Shown here: piece by piece, positions 548-16,832 of the stretch | Layout: every line of letters starts with the position of its first letter | Numbering within the stretch: the first letter of the stretch is position 1 | Source of the DNA: a phage | Direction: 5' to 3' (one strand) | Sequence record: PX423614.1 | Length of the DNA: 64,000 nt | Notes under the pieces: generated by a model | Told to the model about the DNA's origin: nothing | Database searches by the model: none | The model's input: only the letters and a program-made list of their open reading frames with translations | Made by a program: the position numbers and the translations under genes

Positions 548-575
548 TTGACATGTTTTTCCTTTAATGTATAGT
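548..575 (+). promoter_or_regulatory. sigma70-like early promoter
   Basis: TTGACA (548-553), 16-bp spacer, TATAGT (570-575) with TG immediately upstream; ~135 bp before the first gene. Confidence 0.5.
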
Positions 576-1821: not shown

Positions 1822-2148
1822 ATGAAAACTAAGTTAGCTGTATGTGCTGCCTTGTTCGCTATTTCTTCCGTGTCCTATGCTGCCGTATTCAATGAGTCTA
1901 GCCTTGATGGTCTGCAATGCACCTATCTAATGGAAAACTATGACACTGGCAAGAAGTCCAGCAAGGTAGTATTGATTGACCTGAATGACTATGATCATCG
2001 TGTCGTTGATGGCAAGTATGCGATGCTTGTTAATGAAACTACAGGCAAACAAATCACCATAGATCACATGATGCGGTCTAGTATGACGTTGTTCGACGAG
2101 TCGATGAACGAAATAGCATCAGGTAATGGCACTTGCACCAATCCGTAA
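1822..2148 (+). CDS. secreted early protein
   Basis: N-terminal signal peptide MKTKLAVCAALFAISSVSYA; RBS-like GAGG upstream. Confidence 0.55.
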   Translation: MKTKLAVCAALFAISSVSYAAVFNESSLDGLQCTYLMENYDTGKKSSKVVLIDLNDYDHRVVDGKYAMLVNETTGKQITIDHMMRSSMTLFDESMNEIASGNGTCTNP

Positions 2149-2167
2149 CTAATCCGTAAGACTTCCT

Positions 2168-2193
2168 AAGCGCCCTTTTGAGGCGCTTTTTTC
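2168..2193 (+). terminator. rho-independent terminator
   Basis: hairpin AAGCGCC...GGCGCTT followed by T-run. Confidence 0.6.
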
Positions 2194-2354
2194 ATTTCTA
2201 AGGTGATTGCACATCTTGCCCCTGTTTAGCTCGTTAGAACGCCTCCTGTATGCCTTATTTTCGATTATAGGGCTTGTTTTCTTCCTCCCCTGATGTTATT
2301 CGTGTGCGCGTTCCTCTGTACACAAAAGAAAGTGAAATTATTTTAGAAAAAGGC

Positions 2355-2382
2355 TTGCAACGGTTTTATAATAGTGTATATT
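2355..2382 (+). promoter_or_regulatory. sigma70-like early promoter
   Basis: TTGCAA (2355-2360), 16-bp spacer, TG + TATATT (2377-2382). Confidence 0.45.
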
Positions 2383-2422
2383 GAATCTTGTCAGGACGTG
2401 ATGCATTAAGTTACCTCCTGAT

Positions 2423-2455
2423 AGGCTAGATGTTTAGCCTTGCTCTTTAATAATT
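2423..2455 (+). promoter_or_regulatory. rrn-type antiterminator element (boxB-like hairpin + boxA-like TGCTCTTTAATAATT)
   Basis: hairpin AGGCTA...TAGCCT immediately followed by TGCTCTTTAATAATT, near-identical to the E. coli rrn boxA TGCTCTTTAACAATTTA. Confidence 0.5.
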
Positions 2456-2507
2456 CGATTAGTGTATCTTGATAAACTCCCAACCATGCCATAATGAGGA
2501 TTTATCA

Positions 2508-2708
2508 ATGAACGTGTATACCTTCTCAAGCAAAGACACGCAAATCACTTGCACTAGCATTAACGTTACTAACATGATTATGAGAATAGTCGGTAGTACG
2601 CTACAGCAAGCTAAAGAGATGATAGCCGATGCCGATAAAGGCAAATCTATCGCAGTGTTATCGCTGGTAAGTACGGATAAAGATTTAACCTTTAAGCGTA
2701 TGAACTAA
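2508..2708 (+). CDS. hypothetical small early protein (66 aa)
   Basis: GAGGA RBS before ATG 2508; in-frame within track ORF 2469-2708. Confidence 0.5.
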   Translation: MNVYTFSSKDTQITCTSINVTNMIMRIVGSTLQQAKEMIADADKGKSIAVLSLVSTDKDLTFKRMN

Positions 2709-2780
2709 GGTAAGGTAAGGTAAGGTTAGCGGCCTTAATGGTCGCTAGTTTATCAAGATGCATTAATCGAAAAATAGTTG

Positions 2781-2808
2781 TTGACACATCGAATCACTAT
2801 GATAAGAT
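2781..2808 (+). promoter_or_regulatory. sigma70-like early promoter with AT-rich upstream element
   Basis: TTGACA (2781-2786), 16-bp spacer, TGa + TAAGAT (2803-2808). Confidence 0.55.
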
Positions 2809-2840
2809 GTTCACACGGTCAGCGATGACATAAAACATCC

Positions 2841-2874
2841 GGCACTAAGTGCCCCGCTCTTTAATAATTTATCA
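2841..2874 (+). promoter_or_regulatory. rrn-type antiterminator element (hairpin + boxA-like CGCTCTTTAATAATTTATCA)
   Basis: hairpin GGCAC-taa-GTGCC then CGCTCTTTAATAATTTATCA; 18/20 identical to the rrn boxA region GCTCTTTAACAATTTATCA. Confidence 0.55.
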
Positions 2875-2939
2875 TCTTGCCCTTTCGCAAAGATTCACGC
2901 GAGATAAGGGAAAGAATTAAAAGAAGATGATAAAAAGAG

Positions 2940-2967
2940 TTGACAAGCTAACACGATGTGTTAAGCT
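2940..2967 (+). promoter_or_regulatory. sigma70-like early promoter with A-rich UP-like element
   Basis: TTGACA (2940-2945), 16-bp spacer, TGt + TAAGCT (2962-2967); A-rich tract upstream. Confidence 0.55.
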
Positions 2968-2981
2968 GAAAGTGTAGTAAC

Positions 2982-2997
2982 CGCTCTTTAAAAATAT
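2982..2997 (+). promoter_or_regulatory. boxA-like element CGCTCTTTAAAAATAT
   Basis: third copy of the CGCTCTTTAA core about 10 nt downstream of the predicted start site. Confidence 0.45.
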
Positions 2998-3097
2998 GAA
3001 TCAGAAAGTTAAGCGCAACCGCTTACAATCTTGTTAATCCAATACGCGATTAACTGGTCATTCGAAAGAATAGACGAGAAAAAGATTTAAAAAGTGG

Positions 3098-3126
3098 TTG
3101 ACACGCTAAACAGGATGATTCATAAT
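3098..3126 (+). promoter_or_regulatory. strong sigma70 consensus-like early promoter
   Basis: TTGACA (3098-3103), 17-bp spacer, CATAAT (3121-3126); A/T-rich upstream. Confidence 0.6.
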
Positions 3127-3207
3127 GAGCACTCACTAGGCAACTAGTGAAACGTGAAACCACGGCGAACGGTGGCGGGAAGTGAGAAAGCACTTCGATA
3201 GATTTAC

Positions 3208-3227
3208 CGCTCTTTAACAATTTAAAC
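3208..3227 (+). promoter_or_regulatory. rrn-type boxA-like element CGCTCTTTAACAATTTAAAC
   Basis: matches the rrn boxA core GCTCTTTAACAATTT exactly; preceded by hairpin CCACGGCGAACGGTGG. Confidence 0.55.
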
Positions 3228-3229
3228 TT

Positions 3230-4039
3230 CTTCCTATATCGGTTGAACATGGTGAGCAATAATAACCATTGCAAGCTATGCCAGATAAAACGATGTAAGG
3301 CGCTCTAGAGTATCAGAGGAAACCGCTTTACAATCCCTTACTGGAAACGACACCACTGATAAATGAAGTTATTGAGTACATGCAAGGCTTAAGCTAATCG
3401 CCTACGGTTAAAGGGTAGCGGCGGCGGTGCTAGTAAAGTGCTACAATAATAGACGTTTATCGGGGTAGTTAAGTCCGACGAATTAACGCTCAATAGCGAG
3501 CGGCGGGAGGGGGTTAAAGAATGGCAAATTGCTATTTAACAATAAGGTTTAAGCGTGAGTATTTACTAAGTGAGTGTTTTGATACACATCAATAGCGATG
3601 TGAGTACATAAACATGTAGTGTAGTAAATCGTGAGAGAGATAATCAAACGCCAAAGTATCAGGCGGTCAATGACTCTTTACCATATGCTTTCCCATAGTA
3701 GGCGATAAGCAGGTTTAGAGAGTTGATATAAAAGGGTATCACGAAGCGAAAGCAAAGTAAATAGTAATGCCATCGGCTAGAAATTTAGCTAATTAGAGAT
3801 GGACGCGCTTGCCTTATTGTGATGATTGATCATCGCTGGCAAATCGGCTTTGTTTATAGCGATTAGTTAAATCCACCAGATGAAACATCACGGCAAGTTA
3901 GGCGGCAAGGTTAACTCCTGATAAGACCGCCTGATTTACCACTGGTTACTAGTAGTTAGTGATTAGTGTTAAGTCATTGTGACTTGAATAGCTCATAGAG
4001 AGCGGCGCATAGTGCGTTTACAATTGAAAGGTGAATATC
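3230..4039 (+). other. ~800-nt untranslated leader / candidate non-coding RNA region downstream of tandem promoter-boxA modules
   Basis: no ORF of 60 aa or more on either strand in the track; recurring motif GC(G/T)TTTACAAT at about 3019, 3339 and 4011; GCGGCGG-rich segments. Confidence 0.35.
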
Positions 4040-5771: not shown

Positions 5772-6215
5772 ATGGCTAAATCTAAAATCAGCATGAAAGG
5801 CGGACGAGTGTTCTCTATGAGTGAGCTGGAAAAAGAAAAGCCAGCCGCTGTTAACCATATTAGCAAACGTAGCCTTAAACGAAGAGCTATCAAACAAGCC
5901 GCTCAAGAACATAAGCCTTCTACCGTAGCGAAGGTGTTAGGTCGTCGTGTTCATCGTGCTGATGCGCTTCTTCTTGCTGATCACAAGCGTTCTCTGTTAA
6001 CCAACGGTGCAGCAAAAACAGAACAAGAAAAACGTTTAGAAATCTTTTGTAACGGTCGCACTAAAGGTAAGCAGAAGAATAAAGGTAGCACTAAGCCACC
6101 GAAAGCATTTCCTACTACTAGCCAATGTGCACCAGATGTTTTCTACGCTGATAGTAAACATAAGTGGGGAGTTGAAAAATATATTGACCCAATCAAAACA
6201 GCAAGAGTTAAGTAA
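5772..6215 (+). CDS. hypothetical highly basic protein
   Basis: GGAATAAAGAA RBS region; Lys/Arg-rich ORF. Confidence 0.5.
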   Translation: MAKSKISMKGGRVFSMSELEKEKPAAVNHISKRSLKRRAIKQAAQEHKPSTVAKVLGRRVHRADALLLADHKRSLLTNGAAKTEQEKRLEIFCNGRTKGKQKNKGSTKPPKAFPTTSQCAPDVFYADSKHKWGVEKYIDPIKTARVK

Positions 6216-6245: not shown

Positions 6246-6293
6246 GACGCTCTTCTTGAGCGTCTTTGTCTGCCGCCTTTGTGCGGCTTTTTG
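6246..6293 (+). terminator. tandem terminator hairpins
   Basis: GACGCTC...GAGCGTC then GCCGCC...GCGGC followed by TTTTTG. Confidence 0.5.
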
Positions 6294-6452
6294 CGTAGCT
6301 AGTGATGCCTAAAGGGAACCCCCTTTGTGAATCATTGGCATGGTTCAATCCCTATTGGATGGTCATTTGACCGGGCCTTTAACGAGGCCTCTTTTTTAAG
6401 AGTCTTTACGAGGATTCTTAAATGAGTGAGGTCATGTTCACTCTTTCAGGTC

Positions 6453-6479
6453 GCCCCGTCTTCGGATGGGGCTTTTTTA
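6453..6479 (+). terminator. rho-independent terminator
   Basis: GCCCCgtcttcggatGGGGC followed by TTTTTT. Confidence 0.65.
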
Positions 6480-6530: not shown

Positions 6531-6917
6531 TTGACATTGACTATTTATTATGAGGCAGGGAATCAGCCAACCGCTTGCAAAGCATTAGTAGCGGATACCG
6601 TAATAAACAGAATGTCACAACGAAAACTGACTGCCGAGCAGGTTATAAATCAACGAAACCAGTTCGAGTGGATACCCGTCCTATTAAAGAAGGAGAAACC
6701 TTTTAAGCGTTATGTAAAGCTGATTCGTGATGATAATCCTCTGACGAAGAAGTCAATCAGAGAGAGCGAGTGGCTTGCAAGGCGTGCACTGAAGAAAGGT
6801 TATGTGCCTTTGTACAGCGGTACATACTTTCAGAGTAAGAGCGAAGGGGTGCCAAAGTGGTATACCAATCCGATGTATTGTGGTGATTTAGTGTTCAATA
6901 ATAGCTCCCGCGATTGA
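6531..6917 (+). CDS. CwlJ/SleB-like cell-wall hydrolase domain protein
   Basis: motifs IYYEAGNQ, VINRM, NQFEWI, WLARRALKKG and YF...WY resemble the CwlJ/SleB hydrolase family; only in-frame start is TTG 6531. Confidence 0.45.
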   Translation: MTLTIYYEAGNQPTACKALVADTVINRMSQRKLTAEQVINQRNQFEWIPVLLKKEKPFKRYVKLIRDDNPLTKKSIRESEWLARRALKKGYVPLYSGTYFQSKSEGVPKWYTNPMYCGDLVFNNSSRD

Positions 6918-8795: not shown

Positions 8796-9047
8796 ATGTT
8801 CAATCGTTTATTTGACCGTAAAGGTCGCACTGACATACTGATACCTTCTATCGGTGTGCCAGCTAAGTTCGGTGAGATACGTGCTGGTGATTTCTTCATG
8901 GAATCAGGTCGTCTTCATCTGAAGATCAACCTCGATCACGCTGTTGAAATCCTCAGTGATGATAAGCCAATCATCGGCACTTCGGTGTACAGTGCAAACC
9001 ATACTGTATTTGTTGTCAATGTTCAGATTGAGATTAAATCACCATGA
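8796..9047 (+). CDS. small early protein, GDxF paralog family
   Basis: AGAGAGG RBS; IRAGDFFM pattern. Confidence 0.5.
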   Translation: MFNRLFDRKGRTDILIPSIGVPAKFGEIRAGDFFMESGRLHLKINLDHAVEILSDDKPIIGTSVYSANHTVFVVNVQIEIKSP

Positions 9048-9301
9048 AGACAAACTTCCGAGCAGCAGTTATTACGAAAGTAATAGCAGTTGGTGATGTA
9101 ATGATGCAAGTTCCTCTGAACACTCGTTACATTGCCATTGACCGAATGGGTTATGTGTGGGCTTGGAAGTGGAAGCCTACTTACAATAAACTGTTCGACG
9201 AATACCAGTGCGCTGGGCCTTACATGCCAACGTTGGTTGGTGTGTATGAAGACGGTCCTTGTCGTACTCCTCAGTTAATTGAACTACCGGCGTGTGCTTA
9301 G
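9044..9301 (+). CDS. hypothetical protein
   Basis: ORF track; overlapping start/stop with neighbour. Confidence 0.45.
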   Translation: MKTNFRAAVITKVIAVGDVMMQVPLNTRYIAIDRMGYVWAWKWKPTYNKLFDEYQCAGPYMPTLVGVYEDGPCRTPQLIELPACA

Positions 9302-9302
9302 T

Positions 9303-9467
9303 ATGATTAAATGGTTCAAGCGTCTTGTGCATCTGCATGATTGGGTAATCCTTGAAAAATATACGCTGAAGATTACTGACGATCACGGTGGGACAAAGCA
9401 CAAAGGTCTTCGCTATATTATGCAGTGTAAAGTGTGTGGTCATGTTACCAAGCGTGACATGATCTAA
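9303..9467 (+). CDS. small Cys-containing protein, tandem paralog 1 (MIKWFKRL...)
   Basis: N-terminus MIKWFKRL and C-terminal CKVCGH shared with the next gene. Confidence 0.5.
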   Translation: MIKWFKRLVHLHDWVILEKYTLKITDDHGGTKHKGLRYIMQCKVCGHVTKRDMI

Positions 9468-9476
9468 GGGATCATT

Positions 9477-9641
9477 ATGATTAAATGGTTCAAGCGTCTC
9501 TTTCATTTCCATGAGTGGGAAGATCTTTCTACTTATGAATTGACGATCACAAATAAACTTACTGACAGAGAGCGACAAGGGTTGCGTATCTACTCTCGCT
9601 GTAAAGTGTGTGGTCTGCACAAGAAAACAGATCTGATCTAA
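9477..9641 (+). CDS. small Cys-containing protein, tandem paralog 2
   Basis: MIKWFKRLFHFHEW...CKVCGLHKKTDLI, paralog of 9303-9467. Confidence 0.5.
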   Translation: MIKWFKRLFHFHEWEDLSTYELTITNKLTDRERQGLRIYSRCKVCGLHKKTDLI

Positions 9642-9649
9642 GGGGTGTT

Positions 9650-9859
9650 ATGTTCTTTCGTAAGAAAAAGCCCGAAGATTCTGGATGTAAACACGAGTGG
9701 GTGATCACTGAAAACCTACACATCACTCACGCTAAAGATACTCCAGTAGAGAGAAAAGAGTCTCGTGTATCTCGTGTCTGTAAGCGCTGTTTGAAAATAG
9801 AACAGCATAAAGTTCCCGGTCATATCGGTCATGATGTGGCCTTGCGTATTTTCACTTAA
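9650..9859 (+). CDS. small Cys-containing protein, distant paralog 3
   Basis: CKHEWVITE...CKRCL pattern; ATG 9650. Confidence 0.4.
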   Translation: MFFRKKKPEDSGCKHEWVITENLHITHAKDTPVERKESRVSRVCKRCLKIEQHKVPGHIGHDVALRIFT

Positions 9860-9868
9860 ACAAATCCA

Positions 9869-9944
9869 GCACCCTTAGCTCAATGGACAGAGCAGCGACC
9901 TTCTAAGTCGTTGGTTACAGGTTCGAATCCTGTAGGGTGCACCA
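9869..9944 (+). tRNA. tRNA-Arg (anticodon UCU)
   Basis: cloverleaf: acceptor GCACCCT/AGGGTGC, D-stem GCTC/GAGC, anticodon stem-loop with TCT at positions 34-36, T-arm ACAGG-TTCGAAT-CCTGT, encoded 3' CCA. Confidence 0.85.
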
Positions 9945-9962
9945 ATCAACGTAGGAGGGTTT

Positions 9963-10103
9963 ATGACCTCTGAGTTTAATGAGTGGTTCGATGATATCTT
10001 TACTTCTCCTTTGTTCAGCGAAGAAGAAAGAGAAGAACTTAAAACCTACCTATGGATGGCTTGGCGAGATAGCCGCCGTAAGGCGCTTCAGGAGGGATCA
10101 TGA
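9963..10103 (+). CDS. small acidic protein (46 aa)
   Basis: strong AGGAGG RBS before ATG 9963; stop overlaps next start. Confidence 0.45.
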   Translation: MTSEFNEWFDDIFTSPLFSEEEREELKTYLWMAWRDSRRKALQEGS

Positions 10104-10426
10104 GCTGGGGTGGTGTAATTACCTTAACCTGTATCTTTATCGCCTGTGTAGCTCTTACAGGCTGTGTACAGCATCGTCCTGATGGATGGTGTGCATTATC
10201 TGTAGAAGGTGTCTGTGTTTCCCGTTGGCATAGTGGGGAGAAGGTTCCTAGCGGTGAAATTGATATGCGTTATGCTGGCGCTTCTTGTTCAAATGGCGGT
10301 GCTGTTGATGAGAAGGCTTATGCAGGGCGTGATATGGAGACACAAGGTGATTGGTCGCGTTATGACTTTATCTCCCGTGGTGTACAGTGTAGTGGCTCTG
10401 TGACAACAACAGGTAAGGAGTGGTGA
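10100..10426 (+). CDS. putative lipoprotein
   Basis: signal peptide with lipobox-like LTGC; Cys-rich mature part. Confidence 0.5.
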   Translation: MSWGGVITLTCIFIACVALTGCVQHRPDGWCALSVEGVCVSRWHSGEKVPSGEIDMRYAGASCSNGGAVDEKAYAGRDMETQGDWSRYDFISRGVQCSGSVTTTGKEW

Positions 10427-10427
10427 T

Positions 10428-10682
10428 ATGTCTGGTCATTATTCTGATACGAAAGCATTGCTTGAAACAGCAGCTAAGACTTCATGCCAACAGCAAGTAA
10501 AAATGTTGTTGGTTGATATTAACAATCTGCGCTGGCTTATTAAAGAAGGTCATCTTGGAAACGCTGCCTATTACAACGTTAAAGATATCCTTCGCCGCCA
10601 GCACTTCCTTATCCACGGAAACGTGGTCACTCGCAACTACCAATGGAACGGTCAATGGTTACAGCAGCGTATGTCCTCCTGA
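10428..10682 (+). CDS. hypothetical protein
   Basis: ORF track; AGGAG RBS. Confidence 0.5.
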   Translation: MSGHYSDTKALLETAAKTSCQQQVKMLLVDINNLRWLIKEGHLGNAAYYNVKDILRRQHFLIHGNVVTRNYQWNGQWLQQRMSS

Positions 10683-10909
10683 TTTATGTTATTGGTTGGT
10701 GGTTGGCAGCCATTGTAGTTAAATGGTGCTTCAAAACCAATACACTCTACAACTTCTTCCATTCCTCATGGAGTGGTAAGCCTGATGAATACTCTATTTG
10801 GACGGTGATATTCTTCTGGCCTTTTATGCTGATCTTTATCCTCTTCTTACCTTTACTTATGTTGATAGGTTGGGTAATGGATAAGGTGACAATCTTTGTT
10901 ACTAAGTAA
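10643..10909 (+). CDS. small integral membrane protein
   Basis: two to three hydrophobic helices; true start uncertain. Confidence 0.4.
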   Translation: MERSMVTAAYVLLIYVIGWWLAAIVVKWCFKTNTLYNFFHSSWSGKPDEYSIWTVIFFWPFMLIFILFLPLLMLIGWVMDKVTIFVTK

Positions 10910-11185
10910 TATCGTGAAGGATTCTTACGAGAGTCCTTTGAGATAGGACTTCAGATCTCCTATCAACTAACCGCTCAATGTTGAGCATTTTATTCACATA
11001 AGCCCCTCATGGGCTGGGTTTAATGCCGGTAAGCGTTTTACGCTATCCACTACAGCATCGGATTGTTAGGTCTTACATGCAATATTAATTAATAGGATAT
11101 GGGAGGATTCGTCCCCTCCCCCTATTTATGAAAGCATTCTTCCGAGAGTTCTCTCATAAATTGGTCCATAACTAAAGGTGGTAAA

Positions 11186-11440
11186 ATGAAAGTTAACAAA
11201 CCAGCCAGTAAGAACGCAATACCACTCAGCGCTCTGCGTCTTGGGGATTGCTTCATGTACCCTAACAGTGAAGATGGTGATTTGTACATCTTACTGTCTA
11301 CCGAGTTCTCAACTCGACTCTGCATCAAGGGCGCGGACGAGCATAGACTTGTAGCCTGTCTTAACACAGGCCGAGCGACAGCTCCTCGTAAAGATGTTGC
11401 TGTTATTCCTATTAAAGCTGAAGCAACTATTAAGGAGTAA
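11186..11440 (+). CDS. small early protein, GDxF paralog family
   Basis: LRLGDCFMY pattern; AAAGGTGG RBS. Confidence 0.55.
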   Translation: MKVNKPASKNAIPLSALRLGDCFMYPNSEDGDLYILLSTEFSTRLCIKGADEHRLVACLNTGRATAPRKDVAVIPIKAEATIKE

Positions 11441-11443
11441 GCA

Positions 11444-11707
11444 ATGGCTCTGACCATTAACAAAACTCGTATTGCGGATATTCCTCTAATGGTGGCAGGT
11501 GTTTCTATCGGTTCTTTCTTTACTTTGAAAGAAGATAAAGAACAAACCATTTACATGAAAGTGAACAAAAGCTCTAATGGTTGTGAATACCACCGAGCTG
11601 TGTCTATGCAGAGTGGATACGTTCGTAATATGGCATCCAATATGCCAGTTGGTGTTGTGTTTGAATCAGCAACTCTGGATTTAGTGGAGAAGATCAGTGA
11701 AACATAA
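11444..11707 (+). CDS. small early protein, divergent GDxF-family paralog
   Basis: similar length and hydrophobic pattern; AAGGAG RBS. Confidence 0.45.
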   Translation: MALTINKTRIADIPLMVAGVSIGSFFTLKEDKEQTIYMKVNKSSNGCEYHRAVSMQSGYVRNMASNMPVGVVFESATLDLVEKISET

Positions 11708-11954
11708 AGACCATCCAAAGTATGTATCGCTATTGGATGCAGCCCTTCTCTGCACGTACTGGCTCCTTATTGTTATTGGGGTTGTGCTAATGATATGTGG
11801 TGTCGTACAGTTCTTTATGTATCTGCAAAGCGTGTTAGATATCACATTAGCTAACACTATAATCCTTGCAATTCTCGGTATTATTGCTTTCTGTGTGATT
11901 GTCTTCTTCGTTTGGTTATCTATGAACGACGACTCTACACACACCTTCTATTGA
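11697..11954 (+). CDS. small integral membrane protein
   Basis: two long hydrophobic helices. Confidence 0.45.
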   Translation: MKHKDHPKYVSLLDAALLCTYWLLIVIGVVLMICGVVQFFMYLQSVLDITLANTIILAILGIIAFCVIVFFVWLSMNDDSTHTFY

Positions 11955-11967
11955 CAGGAGAGAATCA

Positions 11968-12084
11968 GTGAGAAAACGTGCCTACTCTGAAGAAGAAATG
12001 GTTAACCTGAAAGGATTCGGTCAACGACAGCCCGATGGTTCAGTTATCTGGTACATTAACGGACAGAAAAAGGCAAGTAAATAA
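11968..12084 (+). CDS. small protein (38 aa), GTG start
   Basis: AGGAG RBS before GTG 11968; followed by terminator-like hairpin. Confidence 0.3.
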   Translation: MRKRAYSEEEMVNLKGFGQRQPDGSVIWYINGQKKASK

Positions 12085-12152
12085 GCCCTCTTCTCTCCTC
12101 CTTTTAACTACTATGACGCCTCTCTTTTCGGCGCTGTTTTGGAGCTTCAAAA

Positions 12153-12566
12153 ATGTCTGGGAAATTCCCTAACGTAAGCAAGAAATTGGCTTACTTAACG
12201 TATAAAGAAAACATTGACCTTCTGGTCAAGCTATATCCGGCTTCATTCAACAAGCAATTCCCTCTTCCTTTGGAGCCTAATGTCCACAAGGAAATCGCCC
12301 GCAAGACTGGTTGGTCAGCGGAGAAAACAAGCATGGTGCTCAACATCTGGACTACTCGTATGGAGTATGTGATGATGGCCTGTAGCACTGGTAAACGCTT
12401 CAAGCTGCACTCTGTAGCTATGAAGATTCGTAGCCCTATTGACCCTGAGCCGATGGCTGGCTTTATTAGCCGTCTGAAATCTTTCCGTGATCGTGGTCGT
12501 GTAGTGAAATTCAAGCATGACTTCTCTTACAAGTTTGGATACGAAGCGTTCCAATTTGTTGTTTAA
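12153..12566 (+). CDS. ProQ/FinO-domain-like RNA-binding protein
   Basis: N-terminal region aligns by eye with the ProQ/FinO domain (LYPASF, PLPL, WTTRMEYVMMACSTGKRFKLHS versus ProQ FPHCF, PLKIGI, YTSSWRYL...G.RVDL). Confidence 0.4.
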   Translation: MSGKFPNVSKKLAYLTYKENIDLLVKLYPASFNKQFPLPLEPNVHKEIARKTGWSAEKTSMVLNIWTTRMEYVMMACSTGKRFKLHSVAMKIRSPIDPEPMAGFISRLKSFRDRGRVVKFKHDFSYKFGYEAFQFVV

Positions 12567-12593
12567 TCTCTCTTTAATGTAAGGTAATAAAGC

Positions 12594-12827
12594 ATGTCTA
12601 AAGTTAGCGCAATTGATGCCATCCGTCAGCCGTTCCAGTTCCAGTCTAAATCAACTCAGACCCACAGCGAACCTAAACAGATTCGTCTGGGCGGTACAGA
12701 GAAGACTGTATTCGATATTGCGAAAAATAAAAGCGTAACCATCGTCGAAGGCGGCGAACTGGTTAATGTTTCCCACCGTATTCGCACTGGCAAGACTGCC
12801 AAAGATCGTGCTAAGAAAGGTTTGTAA
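12594..12827 (+). CDS. hypothetical protein
   Basis: ORF track; RBS-like AAGG. Confidence 0.45.
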   Translation: MSKVSAIDAIRQPFQFQSKSTQTHSEPKQIRLGGTEKTVFDIAKNKSVTIVEGGELVNVSHRIRTGKTAKDRAKKGL

Positions 12828-13078
12828 TGCAAATTTCCAATAAAACACCTCCTGAGCCTACTGTTCAAGTAAAAGATATGACACCGGGAGATGTGTTTCG
12901 TTCGGTTGAATATCCGGGGGAATTCTTTATCCGAATCCCTTCTGCCTCTGTTGCTGGTATCGCTAAGCCGGTAACAGCAGTTCAGTTGAGCACAGGTCAT
13001 CTCTTCCGTTTAGAGATTGACATGGCAGTTATTCCTGTTCCGACAGCAATCCTCCGCTTCGACGGAGATACAGAGTAA
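12827..13078 (+). CDS. small early protein, GDxF paralog family
   Basis: MTPGDVFRS...VIPVP; closest paralog of 7811-8044. Confidence 0.55.
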   Translation: MQISNKTPPEPTVQVKDMTPGDVFRSVEYPGEFFIRIPSASVAGIAKPVTAVQLSTGHLFRLEIDMAVIPVPTAILRFDGDTE

Positions 13079-13083
13079 CATCT

Positions 13084-13111
13084 ATAGCCCTCGTGAGTAT
13101 CAGAGGGCTAT
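13084..13111 (+). repeat. conserved hairpin ATAGCCCTC...GAGGGCTAT (copy 2 of duplicated intergenic module)
   Basis: 9-bp stem; homologous to 8279-8306; followed by GCTAGGGAGAG and GAACATCCG..GATAG as in copy 1. Confidence 0.5.
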
Positions 13112-13319
13112 GTGAGCTATTCTGGCTCAACTAACCTAATCTTAATTTAATCTTTCCCGTATGGGGCCGATGCTAGGGAGAGGAATAATCCTCGAACATC
13201 CGTCGGATAGAATATTTTAAGAGCAGGTTATCCACAGATATTGGGTGATATCTATTTAATTGGCCTTAAAGCTTGGCTCTCTTATGAGAGTCCTTTTTTA
13301 AGTTCAAAGAAGAGGTTGT

Positions 13320-13487
13320 ATGGATAATAAGTTGAAAGCTAAATTCTTATTGGCAGCAATCTTTATTTGCTTAGCCACTGTGGGGTTTGTCAGGATGTAC
13401 TCTTTTGCATCTTGCGAGTTAAGCAAGAATAACAGAGGGTCTTACAACTGGCTAACCAATCAATGTGACAAACAGGAGAAGTTATGA
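13320..13487 (+). CDS. small membrane/secreted protein (55 aa)
   Basis: AAGAGG RBS; hydrophobic N-terminus; stop overlaps next ATG. Confidence 0.4.
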   Translation: MDNKLKAKFLLAAIFICLATVGFVRMYSFASCELSKNNRGSYNWLTNQCDKQEKL

Positions 13488-13846
13488 ACCTACGCCCCAT
13501 TAAAGGCCATGTGAACCTGTCTACGCTTCATAAAGTAGCAAATGATTTAGGTGGTATGGATGAGGAAGATCTGAAACAGCAACTGCTTTGGATTTCTCAT
13601 GGTATCAAGGCGGCAAAGGCCAAAATGGCTCGTGCACAAGGTAAACTAAAAGCGAATAAATATCTTATTCGCCGTCGTAATACCTTACCTCAGGATGTGG
13701 TAAGTTTAGCTTTATCAGGATATAAAGCAGCAGAGGTAGAGCTTCAGGAAGCAGAGTTTGAAAAAATGCGCTTCCAAGAGAACTATCGAAACTTCCGTAG
13801 TATTGACTACATTCGCAAATCTCTGAGCCTTTTGGTAGCAGAGTAA
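13484..13846 (+). CDS. hypothetical protein
   Basis: ORF track; AGGAG RBS. Confidence 0.5.
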   Translation: MNLRPIKGHVNLSTLHKVANDLGGMDEEDLKQQLLWISHGIKAAKAKMARAQGKLKANKYLIRRRNTLPQDVVSLALSGYKAAEVELQEAEFEKMRFQENYRNFRSIDYIRKSLSLLVAE

Positions 13847-13856
13847 AGAGGTAAAA

Positions 13857-15074
13857 ATGTTCCCTGTAACACTTCAAAGCTGGAAAGAATCAGAAGACGT
13901 TGTAACTGTTTGGCCTCCTTGTTATGGTTTCCTGAAAGCAGGTTACTATCAGGGTGGTGATTATGGTGAAGATGAAGACGGTGATCCTGACTACTACTGC
14001 ACATACGACAGCAACTACGGCTGGAATATCCGCATTAAGGTGTGGAGTAAAAATATGATGGTTCGTCAAGGCACTGCCGAAGAGAACGTTCTCGAAAACA
14101 TGATGCCTATGTCCGAAATCAAGTACATCTGGAACTCTGGTACACACCTTCCCGCTTATGGTGTAAAACGCTATGGTGATAAAGAGCCTATTGCCACTCA
14201 ATATTTCCGTGAAGGGGTGGAGAATGGAGACCCTCGTCCACCTTCCCACGTAGAAACATGGGCAGAAGAAAACAACCGTCCTGATATTACTGATCGCGCT
14301 GTAATGGAAGCTTTTGAAGCATTCATGGATAAAGATTCTGACTCATGTCTGGTGTGGCATGAAGCAGGATTCATGGGTGTTTGTACTGATGGTTGTCCTG
14401 CTGATCGCGCTCTGTTCTATCTGATGCTGAATCGCACATTCTATACAGATGATGAAAAATCTGCTGTGTATGAAATGTTGAACAAGATGTATAAGAAGGG
14501 CTGGTCTCCTTTAGCCTCTCTTGCATTCAGCCGACTGATCAACTCTTCAGTGGATGTGTTCGGTAACGAACGTGTTGCTTTAACAGGGAATGATTATGAT
14601 TCCTGTATCTTCCAAGCATCTCTGTATACAGTGGGTGTTGGCAGTACAATGGTTGAACCTCGCCAGACCAAGTGGCGACAGTGTGAATACACCGAAGGTG
14701 AAGGGCATCTTCGTGATGAAGACTTCCCCAGTCTGCTCTACCGTAGTGAAGGTGTGCGAGACTGTCGAGTGAATAACTCAATGTTCTTACCAATCCTTCT
14801 TCCTCAGTATTGCAATCTGCCGAATGGTGAACGTCCGGTCATCACAGAGAAGTCACTCTTGGTTGAATTTATCCGAGAAGTGGCTGAATCTGAAACATCT
14901 TTTGATAAAATTGTGTTCGGTTATAACTGGAACAATGAAACAGCTTCAGCTCGAAGCTACAACACGTATAACATTATCAGTAGTATGTCCAATGGACTGA
15001 CAGGTAGTAATTATACAGTACGTCCCTCAGAAGAGTGGGAAACCATTATGGAAAAATTATTCTTTAATAAATAG
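13857..15074 (+). CDS. hypothetical protein (405 aa), first gene of ligase cluster
   Basis: long ORF with no motif I recognise; acidic Gly-rich N-terminus; co-oriented and tightly linked with the ligase genes. Confidence 0.55.
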   Translation: MFPVTLQSWKESEDVVTVWPPCYGFLKAGYYQGGDYGEDEDGDPDYYCTYDSNYGWNIRIKVWSKNMMVRQGTAEENVLENMMPMSEIKYIWNSGTHLPAYGVKRYGDKEPIATQYFREGVENGDPRPPSHVETWAEENNRPDITDRAVMEAFEAFMDKDSDSCLVWHEAGFMGVCTDGCPADRALFYLMLNRTFYTDDEKSAVYEMLNKMYKKGWSPLASLAFSRLINSSVDVFGNERVALTGNDYDSCIFQASLYTVGVGSTMVEPRQTKWRQCEYTEGEGHLRDEDFPSLLYRSEGVRDCRVNNSMFLPILLPQYCNLPNGERPVITEKSLLVEFIREVAESETSFDKIVFGYNWNNETASARSYNTYNIISSMSNGLTGSNYTVRPSEEWETIMEKLFFNK

Positions 15075-15082
15075 AGGCGAAT

Positions 15083-16033
15083 ATGTCAATCTCCGCATCG
15101 ATTGCTCCGGTAACACCGGCAGAGGATTTCGGTGAGTCAGTGTTCAAAGGAAGAGCTTGCTTTGGTACTTTTAACTGTATGCACATGTATTCTGTTACAG
15201 ACATTAACGGTGAAAGTCGTAACCGAACAAGCCTTCGTGATAGAACTTCAGAAATTGAAGTTATTAACTTCTGGCCTCACAATTTTTATGGCGTACCAGC
15301 TAAAGATATCGAAAGAGCTTTGGTTGAAGCAACAGACATTTTTAACTCAATGTCTTGCTATAAAGATATGTTCTCTGTCACTTCGGTGAACTCTATTGCC
15401 GTGAACCTTCGAAACCATCCAGCAGACAAGGTGTTTACTGGACTAATGACCATCCGTAGCTATTTGGATGGTGATTTTAATGGAATGGAGTTCCTTCAGG
15501 AAGGCGTACAAGACAAGGAAGAGTTGCTTAAGCGACAACGAATCGGTTTAGCTCTACGCCTAGCTGGTTTAAGTCGTAACTTCTTTGGTCGCTGGTGTTA
15601 TAGTAATGACGTAGACTCAACTGATGAGTCAGCAGCGACTTATTTTGATGGTGACATGAGTGCAATTGCATTTCTGCCACTAATTTGCACCACTGATGAA
15701 TTTTCTGAAAACGTATGGGTTCAGAATGTGTTCGGTGTTGATGATAACCGAGATGGTTATGTACGAAACCATAATGATGGAGTTCTCCGTCGTATGGCAC
15801 GTCGTCGTGACCAAGACCCTGACCATTACGAGAGTATGAGTGAATGGTTACGTCTCTGGTCAACTTGTGCAGGTCACAAGAGAGAAGTATTAGATCAGCG
15901 TATGGATAGAATTACTGTTCGTAGTTTTATTGAACGTCTGATGCAAGCAGTACCTTCCTCAATGACACCAGAAGAAGCTGGTGCCCGTGTTGTTTCCCTT
16001 TTTGATGAACTCGTGGAGTATTACAATGACTAA
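15083..16033 (+). CDS. hypothetical protein (316 aa), ligase cluster
   Basis: long ORF; no recognisable motif. Confidence 0.55.
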   Translation: MSISASIAPVTPAEDFGESVFKGRACFGTFNCMHMYSVTDINGESRNRTSLRDRTSEIEVINFWPHNFYGVPAKDIERALVEATDIFNSMSCYKDMFSVTSVNSIAVNLRNHPADKVFTGLMTIRSYLDGDFNGMEFLQEGVQDKEELLKRQRIGLALRLAGLSRNFFGRWCYSNDVDSTDESAATYFDGDMSAIAFLPLICTTDEFSENVWVQNVFGVDDNRDGYVRNHNDGVLRRMARRRDQDPDHYESMSEWLRLWSTCAGHKREVLDQRMDRITVRSFIERLMQAVPSSMTPEEAGARVVSLFDELVEYYND

Positions 16034-16832
16034 GCGCGCTTTCCTTATTGGCTCTGACCCTGAAATGTTTGTTCGTACTGCTTCCGGTATTATCACCTCT
16101 GTGGCTGGTAAGCTGGGCTGTTCTAAAGATAATAAAATTGATCTGGCTCCTGATGTTCGTCTTCAAGAAGACAACGTTCTGGCTGAGTTTGATATTAACC
16201 CACAGAAAGGGTTTGAAGCGTTTGATGATAATATTCAGCGTGGTATTGATCTGACTAACAAAGTTCTCAATGAACGTGGCATGGAGGCAGCACTTGGGAT
16301 TAGCTCTCATGTGTTCACTTCAGAAGAACTTGAATCATTCCACCCGTCAGCTTTTGTATTTGGCTGTACTCCTGATTTCAATGCCTTCACTGGACAAAAG
16401 AACCCTTCACCAGTCGCAACTGATAAGGGTTTGCGTACTGCTGGGGGTCATGTGCACCTTGGTGTCTCCGGGACTTTAGAGATTACTCGACAAACTCAAA
16501 TGATGTTGGGTGTGTTGTGTGATTACTTCCTGTCCTTGCCAGCTGTGATCATGGATAAAGACACTCGTCGTAAAGAGTTGTACGGAAAGGCTTCTGCCAT
16601 TCGCTACAAAGATTACGGTATTGAATATCGTTCTCTTTCTAACTTCTGGATTGGTGATAAGTCCACTCGCAAGTTTGTTTATGAGCAAGTGGATAAGGTT
16701 GTTCAGGGTTGTGATATGGAAGTGTTGATGTCACTTCACTCTCGCCTTCCAATTGAAAAGCTTCACAACATCATCAACAGCAACGATGTTAAAGAAGCGG
16801 ATAAATTCTCCTCTAAACTCCAGATTGTATAA
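16026..16832 (+). CDS. amidoligase-like protein, paralog A
   Basis: shares four ordered motifs with the 17465-18565 product: GSDPEMF/GIELEVEG, LAEFxxxP/CELVxxxP, GGHVH/STHVH, YGIEYRS/GSVEFRIS; start 16026 has a GGAG RBS. Confidence 0.4.
   Translation: MTKRAFLIGSDPEMFVRTASGIITSVAGKLGCSKDNKIDLAPDVRLQEDNVLAEFDINPQKGFEAFDDNIQRGIDLTNKVLNERGMEAALGISSHVFTSEELESFHPSAFVFGCTPDFNAFTGQKNPSPVATDKGLRTAGGHVHLGVSGTLEITRQTQMMLGVLCDYFLSLPAVIMDKDTRRKELYGKASAIRYKDYGIEYRSLSNFWIGDKSTRKFVYEQVDKVVQGCDMEVLMSLHSRLPIEKLHNIINSNDVKEADKFSSKLQIV

Follow-up and report, generated by a model that had tools for sequence, protein, structure and literature searches.

What might a small, strongly basic protein bind when it is encoded among the early genes of a virulent phage? 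The question is raised by the gene at 12153..12566 (+ strand) in a 64,000-nucleotide stretch of phage DNA from sequence record PX423614.1 (this whole stretch is called the window below, and positions are counted along it unless another contig is named), whose product the original prediction, made from the sequence alone, had described as a ProQ/FinO-domain-like RNA-binding protein of the early region. The window shares ~95–97% nucleotide identity with the Suseptimavirus-type phiEco32-like podophages of Escherichia coli (SU7, EK010, PAS59 and Bas86-Bas88). The gene product is almost certainly a FinO-domain homologue; to judge from its sequence it probably binds RNA; and we lean slightly towards the fuller statement, taken as a whole, that it binds the 3' ends of terminated transcripts in early infection.

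The gene and its domain

The open reading frame (ORF) starts with ATG, and its 137 codons plus stop exactly fill 12153..12566 (+). A Shine-Dalgarno sequence, GGAG at 12141..12144 (+), can be read 8 nucleotides before the ATG, and SU7 has an annotated ribosome-binding site at the corresponding place. The product matches phrog_18901 (E 3e–60), and its orthologues SU7_91 and Bas87_0089 are both deposited as "hypothetical protein". In a comparison of eight phage genomes, the pairwise ratio of nonsynonymous to synonymous substitution rates (dN/dS) was 0.04–0.18, with dS up to 0.32; residues 3–41 and 45–97 were invariant, and of 13 positions variable in the clade, 10 sat at residue 98 or later. This is a real gene under strong purifying selection.

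With 16.0 kDa, an isoelectric point of 10.0 and a net charge of +12.8, the protein fits a family whose members are small (14–27 kDa) and basic (PMC9977716). Taken alone it scored 23.6 bits against Pfam PF04352 (E 5.3e–5, residues 18–87), short of the gathering score of 27 bits, and phmmer found no match for it among PDB sequences. The domain call is settled by the profiles and fold of its relatives rather than by the single sequence, and we regard the sub-threshold Pfam score as a sensitivity limit for a divergent member, not as evidence against homology. A 38-sequence family profile searched against the PDB placed only the seven solved FinO-domain sequences below E 0.01 (ProQ 1.9e–14, RocC 6e–12, FinO 1e–9, Lpp1663 1e–8, NMB1681 2.7e–6), and a 5-sequence profile gave the same outcome; the refuting outcome named beforehand, no significant profile hit, thus did not occur, and the ProQ/FinO-like call was borne out. 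PF04352 was matched by all five phage homologues tested (best E 5.4e–19), and the 97%-identical cluster representative carries a precomputed match to it.

An AlphaFold2 model built on the family alignment (predicted local distance difference test score, pLDDT, 91.3; predicted template modelling score 0.85) showed the FinO fold of about five helices and a two-stranded antiparallel hairpin. When it was searched against the PDB with Foldseek, the best 26 matches were all FinO-domain chains at probability 1.00, and the next match had E 0.5. The domain spans residues 10–110 (12180..12482, +), with helices at 10–27, 44–52, 56–66 and 70–79, a beta-hairpin at 81–83/93–95 and a helix at 98–110; the prediction of a domain in the N-terminal ~80 residues was thus right as to type and too short as to extent, which is about 100 residues. 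Beyond it the 137 residues hold only a 27-residue helix and tail, and no other Pfam domain of note. Weak Pfam and NCBIfam matches to ribosomal protein L31 and DUF7343 were dismissed as noise, and no second FinO-like gene was found in the window.

RNA-contact residues and proposed function

Two RNA-binding elements of FinO domains are known from the crystal structure of RocC with RocR and from mutagenesis of ProQ (PMC9674577, PMC10168233). One is a pocket for the 3'-terminal nucleotide (RocC Y87/R97, equivalent to ProQ Y70/R80), shut by a beta-turn whose Gly is nearly invariant (RocC G52, ProQ G37). The other, a helix N-cap, recognises successive phosphates at the foot of the terminator hairpin (RocC S70, K71 and R75; ProQ S53, K54 and R58): ProQ R58 was needed for seven of the seven RNAs tested, RocC R75D cost more than 100-fold in affinity, and across the family this position, one helical turn beyond the N-cap, is Arg in ~80% of cases and otherwise Lys (same sources).

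In the phage protein the segment Ser55-Arg82 aligns without gaps to ProQ S53-R80 and RocC S70-R97, and likewise to FinO, so that the residue register is secure. The 3'-nucleotide pocket (12366..12398, +) is present: Tyr72 (12366-12368) and Arg82 (12396-12398) stand at the positions of the ProQ and RocC pocket pair, and both are invariant in 38 of 38 subfamily members. In the N-cap segment (12315..12332, +), Ser55 is kept as the counterpart of ProQ S53, at a position that is Ser or Thr in 29 of the 38; Thr67 is retained as well.

In the reading towards which we lean, the early host-takeover cluster would express a small, very basic, single-domain "minimal" ProQ/FinO-family protein, whose Tyr/Arg pocket would hold the 3'-terminal nucleotide as in RocC and ProQ. 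Its targets would be RNAs that end in a hairpin and a tail with a free 3'-OH, that is, intrinsic terminators, and the 3' ends so capped would be shielded from 3' exonucleases and polyadenylation-dependent decay, as ProQ ligands are. Terminators of the phage early region, where they are over-represented, would be potential ligands; terminator-like sites there were enriched (18 vs. 7.3 expected, and 10 vs. 4.5 expected). Precedents for parts of this scheme are at hand: ProQ protects RNA 3' ends (PMC9977716, PMC12086684), and PMC7272453 reports that in Neisseria the FinO domain alone suffices for global RNA binding.

Several points weigh against this reading, besides the single-sequence results with Pfam and phmmer given above. 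The essential N-cap Arg is absent: Ser60 sits where ProQ R58 and RocC R75 do, Arg or Lys occupies position 60 in only 6 of the 38 subfamily members, and on the alignment the loss is a property of the whole phage subfamily. Ala56 stands in place of ProQ K54 (RocC K71), and Asn64 in place of ProQ R62. The near-invariant pocket Gly is replaced by Asn43 (12279..12281, +), which is fixed in the eight Suseptimavirus-type genomes, at a position that is Gly in 33 of the 38. The extra C-terminal helix described below could lie over some of the RNA face. Phages of this type can do without the gene, Kuravirus lacking it; the enrichment of terminators is also expected in relatives that lack the gene, and so does not discriminate; and in the literature searched we found no RNA-binding data for this protein or for any phage homologue.

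These points do not all carry the same consequence. Where Gly is replaced in beta-turns of this kind, Asn is what usually takes its place, so the pocket turn may survive. Without the canonical Arg for gripping the hairpin phosphates, the protein probably departs from characterised family members in affinity or in the range of its ligands. Ser60 makes canonical terminator binding less certain but leaves the homology untouched; and with two highly conserved functional residues, Gly and Arg, replaced in the alignment, functional equivalence is not established. As a separate observation, codon 42 (12276-12278), at the position of RocC Ile51 adjoining the pocket turn, encodes Pro here and Leu in the seven other clade genomes compared.

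Features of the phage subfamily and comparison with known proteins

Invariant residues of the subfamily's own are Tyr17, Trp66, Arg69 (equivalent to RocC R84) and Glu71. A three-residue insertion in the beta-hairpin, Lys91-Ile92-Arg93 (12423..12431, +), is clade-specific: it falls in a gap in 34–35 of the 38 family members and is invariant within the Suseptimavirus clade, which alone in the subfamily combines it with Asn43. The C-terminal extension (12483..12563, +) comprises a helix at 114–128 (pLDDT 96–97) and the motif F120..F124..F128-G129..A132-F133, which in the form F..F..FG..AF is common to ~24 of the 38 homologues and absent from ProQ, RocC and FinO.

In architecture the protein comes closest to the minimal ProQ proteins NMB1681 (Neisseria meningitidis) and Lpp1663 (Legionella pneumophila), and in structure to RocC. 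Identity to the minimal proteins is only 16–18%, and they are chromosomally encoded, whereas the gene here belongs to a virulent phage and its product adds the C-terminal helix and motif and the hairpin insertion. The RocC FinO domain (7RGT and 7RGU, with the RocR terminator) has K71, R75 and G52 where the phage protein has Ala56, Ser60 and Asn43, and RocC has in addition a long C-terminal region and one dedicated small RNA (sRNA) partner, no counterpart of which was found for the phage gene. E. coli ProQ, the best profile match, shares the domain and the pocket, but its linker and Tudor-like C-terminal domain are absent from the phage protein, which therefore lacks the three-part architecture, and ProQ K35, K54, R58 and R62 are replaced by Glu41, Ala56, Ser60 and Asn64. 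Plasmid FinO and FopA differ in their long N-terminal helix or arm, which the phage protein lacks, and no cis-antisense partner was detected for the latter. What separates it from ProQ, RocC and FinO alike is the lack of both the N-cap Arg and the pocket Gly.

The ProQ/FinO assignment itself is not new: UniProt and BFVD already give the name "ProQ/FinO domain-containing protein" to the orthologue in SU7 and the homologue in 7-11, a family review merely notes phage-encoded homologues (PMC9977716), and the KASIA genome paper remarks on one phage member (PMC8541194). No functional study of any phage member was found in the literature searched.

Distribution and origin

A tblastn search of phage genomes returned 22 near-identical copies and 55 distant ones (28–41% identity). 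The SU7 protein (A0A8F3C9D8, 97% identity) belongs to the same subfamily, as do the distant copies, which come from Salmonella 7-11-like phages (G0X555 in phage 7-11), Erwinia and Salmonella Kolesnikvirus, Aeromonas Lahexavirus and Shewanella phage KASIA (KASIA_p031); several of them are annotated as ProQ/FinO or RNA chaperone. The 7-11-type forms, of 227–250 residues, carry an extra C-terminal domain that the Suseptimavirus protein lacks. An exhaustive HMMER search of 1.84 billion cluster representatives found 41 homologous clusters, a word-indexed homology search found only the 97%-identity cluster, and a search for related loci with the single protein returned one; the product belongs to a small, phage-only subfamily. 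Salmonella phage 7-11 appears to carry two FinO-fold proteins in BFVD, G0X555 (234 residues) and G0X575 (125 residues), and K4F7Y7 of Cronobacter phage GAP52, listed there as uncharacterised, also matches the fold.

Among phiEco32-like phages, Suseptimavirus carries the gene and Kuravirus lacks precisely this gene. In Kuravirus Bas89, the homologue of the gene at window 12594 comes straight after a 38-residue ORF (window 11968..12084), and the ~470 bp missing there (about 12126-12593) contain only the ProQ/FinO coding sequence. The indel boundary near 12126 lies shortly 3' of that conserved 38-residue ORF (11968..12084, +), which has a GTG start (VRKRAYSEEEMVNLKGFGQRQPDGSVIWYINGQKKASK), matches phrog_14557 (E 1e–27) and has the orthologue Bas89_0091; it is annotated in Bas88, Bas89, MLP3 and IME267, and unannotated in SU7.

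A search of 5,426 complete E. coli genomes gave no nucleotide match to the gene, and among 72,556 plasmids the best hit, at E 0.07, was not significant. Its base composition is also ordinary. We take it to be a phage-lineage gene and reject a recent capture from host or plasmid. Loss from Kuravirus seems at least as likely as gain by Suseptimavirus, because the Grimontviridae phage BUCT695 (Aeromonas) carries a FinO-like gene a few kb 5' of a COOH-NH2 ligase gene that it shares with the window. Such loosely shared gene order is a hint of a FinO-like gene ancestral to both phiEco32-like and 7-11-like phages. The ligase gene lies at 15981-16832 (+), 3.4 kb 3' of the FinO-like gene in the window, and its 48%-identical counterpart in BUCT695 (10879-11688 of contig L025) lies 4.5 kb 3' of the FinO-like gene there.

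Early-region context

Synteny with phiEco32 fits the predicted early-region location, in a cluster thought on the same ground to serve host takeover (PMC8948821), and a FinO-like gene is also reported in the early region of KASIA (PMC8541194). The promoter motif of the phage sigma factor (phi32_gp36), TAATGTATA, occurs on the + strand only at 565, 33780 and 40543, with no motif of this type on the gene's strand between the first two; together with the synteny, this leads us to infer that the gene is of the early class. The strongest sigma-70-like promoter, TTGACA-16-TATAGT at 548-575 (+), has 11 of 12 matches and overlaps the exact TAATGTATA copy at 565-573.

Small + strand genes of unknown function follow one another at 11186-13078, the gene among them, and its neighbours, matching only PHROGs of unknown function, give no functional clue. 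Three proteins of ~85 residues encoded at 11186-11440, 11444-11707 and 12827-13078 (+) cross-match one another's PHROGs (phrog_7832, phrog_12612 and phrog_6570), and look like a small paralogous family, its function unassigned, flanking the FinO-like gene. Just 5' of the block, a GC-rich hairpin with a weak T-tract (11101..11120, +; fold z –2.25) is a possible upstream transcript boundary; downstream, the first intrinsic-terminator-like hairpin with a T-tract (13275..13300, +; fold –17.1 kcal/mol, z –2.5) would mark the 3' end of the transcription unit, and the SU7 annotation also has a terminator at this place. Elsewhere in the window, four terminator-like hairpins stand in tandem within ~230 bp (6246-6472, +, at 6246, 6272, 6373 and 6453), occupying the gap between the ORFs 5772..6215 and 6531..6917. 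A tRNA-Arg (anticodon UCU) at 9869-9944 (+), inside the early cluster, was the sole Rfam or ARAGORN match in the 64 kb; no other Rfam family was found.

The original prediction had also placed the gene downstream of a large untranslated early RNA region and suggested that its product could stabilise or remodel phage or host RNAs. There is indeed an ORF-poor stretch of 1.9 kb at about 2148-4031; it has sigma-70 promoters close to consensus (at 2781, TTGACA-16-TAAGAT with TG, and at 3098, TTGACA-17-CATAAT) and gave no Rfam match. It lies 8 kb upstream of the gene, with more than 25 ORFs and many terminators between. Its part ~2870-4031, mostly unannotated, is ~77% identical across Gordonclarkvirinae including phiEco32, and the stretch is conserved (~77%) in Kuravirus phages, phiEco32 among them, in which the FinO-like gene is missing. 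A specific link between the region and the gene therefore lacks support, and co-occurrence of the two was rejected.

NAD+ salvage genes beside relatives of the gene

In several relatives, a gene of the FinO subfamily lies within 1 kb of NAD+ salvage genes, whose types differ and in part are not homologous (contigs L001, 2983-6351; L002, 200-3462; L014, 5001-8197; L018, 3745-6897; L023, 4801-6940). The associated genes are Prs and NAMPT in Salmonella phage SE131, Erwinia phage Hena2 and the metagenomic contigs L014-L016; an NMNAT/NUDIX gene and NAMPT on either side of the FinO-like gene, with overlapping genes, in L018 and L019; and a NadR-like gene with PnuC in L023. The Suseptimavirus gene has no such neighbours, no NAD+ salvage genes were found in the window, and no mention of a FinO-NAD salvage association was found in the literature searched. 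Because one backbone (AAA ATPase ... FinO ... TerC) recurs in several of these contigs, the adjacencies are not independent events, and the NAD genes may merely fill a variable slot. A different neighbour, directly 3' of the FinO-like gene in SE131 (L001, 3688-4329, 213 residues), is 36% identical to that of Aeromonas phage LAh_8 (L003, 3384-4040); this conserved downstream neighbour is absent from the window.

Alternative explanations

That the ORF is spurious, or a decayed remnant superficially like ProQ, is hardly credible: the sub-threshold Pfam score and the GenBank name "hypothetical protein" would suit such a view, and it is refuted by dN/dS of 0.04–0.18, an invariant core, a family of 41 clusters, and profile and fold matches exclusively to FinO-domain proteins. 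The alternatives that accept the domain differ in its ligand. The protein might be directed at the host, competing with host ProQ or Hfq for sRNAs and mRNA 3' ends during takeover, either to stabilise labile antitoxin sRNAs, which are major ProQ ligands, so that host transcription shut-off triggers no abortive infection, or to sequester host regulatory RNAs. The fold and pocket it shares with ProQ, its place in a variable early cluster thought to serve takeover, a presence in Suseptimavirus and absence from Kuravirus of the kind typical of host-interaction genes, and the adjacency in relatives to NAD+ salvage genes, which may act in counter-defence, all speak for this; its surface differs from that of ProQ at K54, R58 and R62, so the same set of RNAs is not expected, and the sequence itself does not separate host from phage targets. 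We consider this explanation unlikely, if less so than those that follow. A matchmaker dedicated to a single pair, one phage antisense RNA with its target, on the pattern of FinO with FinP/traJ, FopA with Inc/repZ and RocC with RocR, has in its favour that where mobile elements carry specialised FinO-domain proteins, each usually acts on a single RNA pair (PMC9977716), and that the early region offers many short terminator-bounded intervals as well as the 1.9-kb ORF-poor stretch with its consensus sigma-70 promoters. It is quite improbable on present evidence: no cis-encoded RNA partner was found in or beside the indel segment, the sequence missing in Kuravirus (~12126-12593) being coding sequence only; the 5' leader of the gene folds no better than shuffled sequence (z 0.01); no minus-strand promoter was found in 9000-15000, and a weak minus-strand hairpin at 12229-12214 is at chance level; the ORF-poor region is kept in phages without the gene; and the flexible extensions to which FinO and ProQ owe their strand-exchange activity are missing from the protein. 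Because the ProQ linker and Tudor domain and the FinO N-terminal arm are all absent, a binder and protector of 3' ends is, on our analysis, more likely than an RNA-RNA matchmaker.

More doubtful still is a FinO fold re-purposed for a ligand other than terminator hairpins: a nucleotide bearing ribose-phosphate or an NAD-capped RNA end, either of them sitting in the retained Tyr/Arg pocket, or a protein partner. Its attraction is that the subfamily has largely dropped the hairpin-gripping Arg/Lys (kept in 6 of 38) with the pocket invariant, has added invariant W66, R69 and E71 and a C-terminal helix, and in several relatives abuts NAD+ salvage genes of non-homologous types. The shared backbone of several such contigs, which may reduce the adjacency to a variable-gene slot, and the window's lack of NAD salvage genes count on the other side, as do the N-cap Ser and the overall basic charge, which still fit binding of an RNA backbone; and we know of no precedent for a FinO domain with a non-RNA ligand. 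A bolder variant is a long shot, on a par with the matchmaker: that the FinO subfamily of virulent enterobacterial, Aeromonas and Shewanella phages as such recognises another class of ligand than ProQ and FinO (e.g. NAD-capped or modified RNA termini) tied to phage NAD+ salvage or counter-defence, the Suseptimavirus gene being an orphan of that module.

Significance

The ProQ/FinO proteins make up one of the major classes of RNA-binding regulators in bacteria, and as far as the searched literature shows none from a virulent phage has been characterised. This gene lends itself to study, being present in the BASEL phages Bas86-Bas88, which infect E. coli K-12 with restored O-antigen; the related Kuravirus phages without it are a natural "minus" control, and the ligands of host ProQ and the assays for them are already well established. 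Its mix of retained and lost contact residues would test which FinO-domain contacts are truly indispensable.

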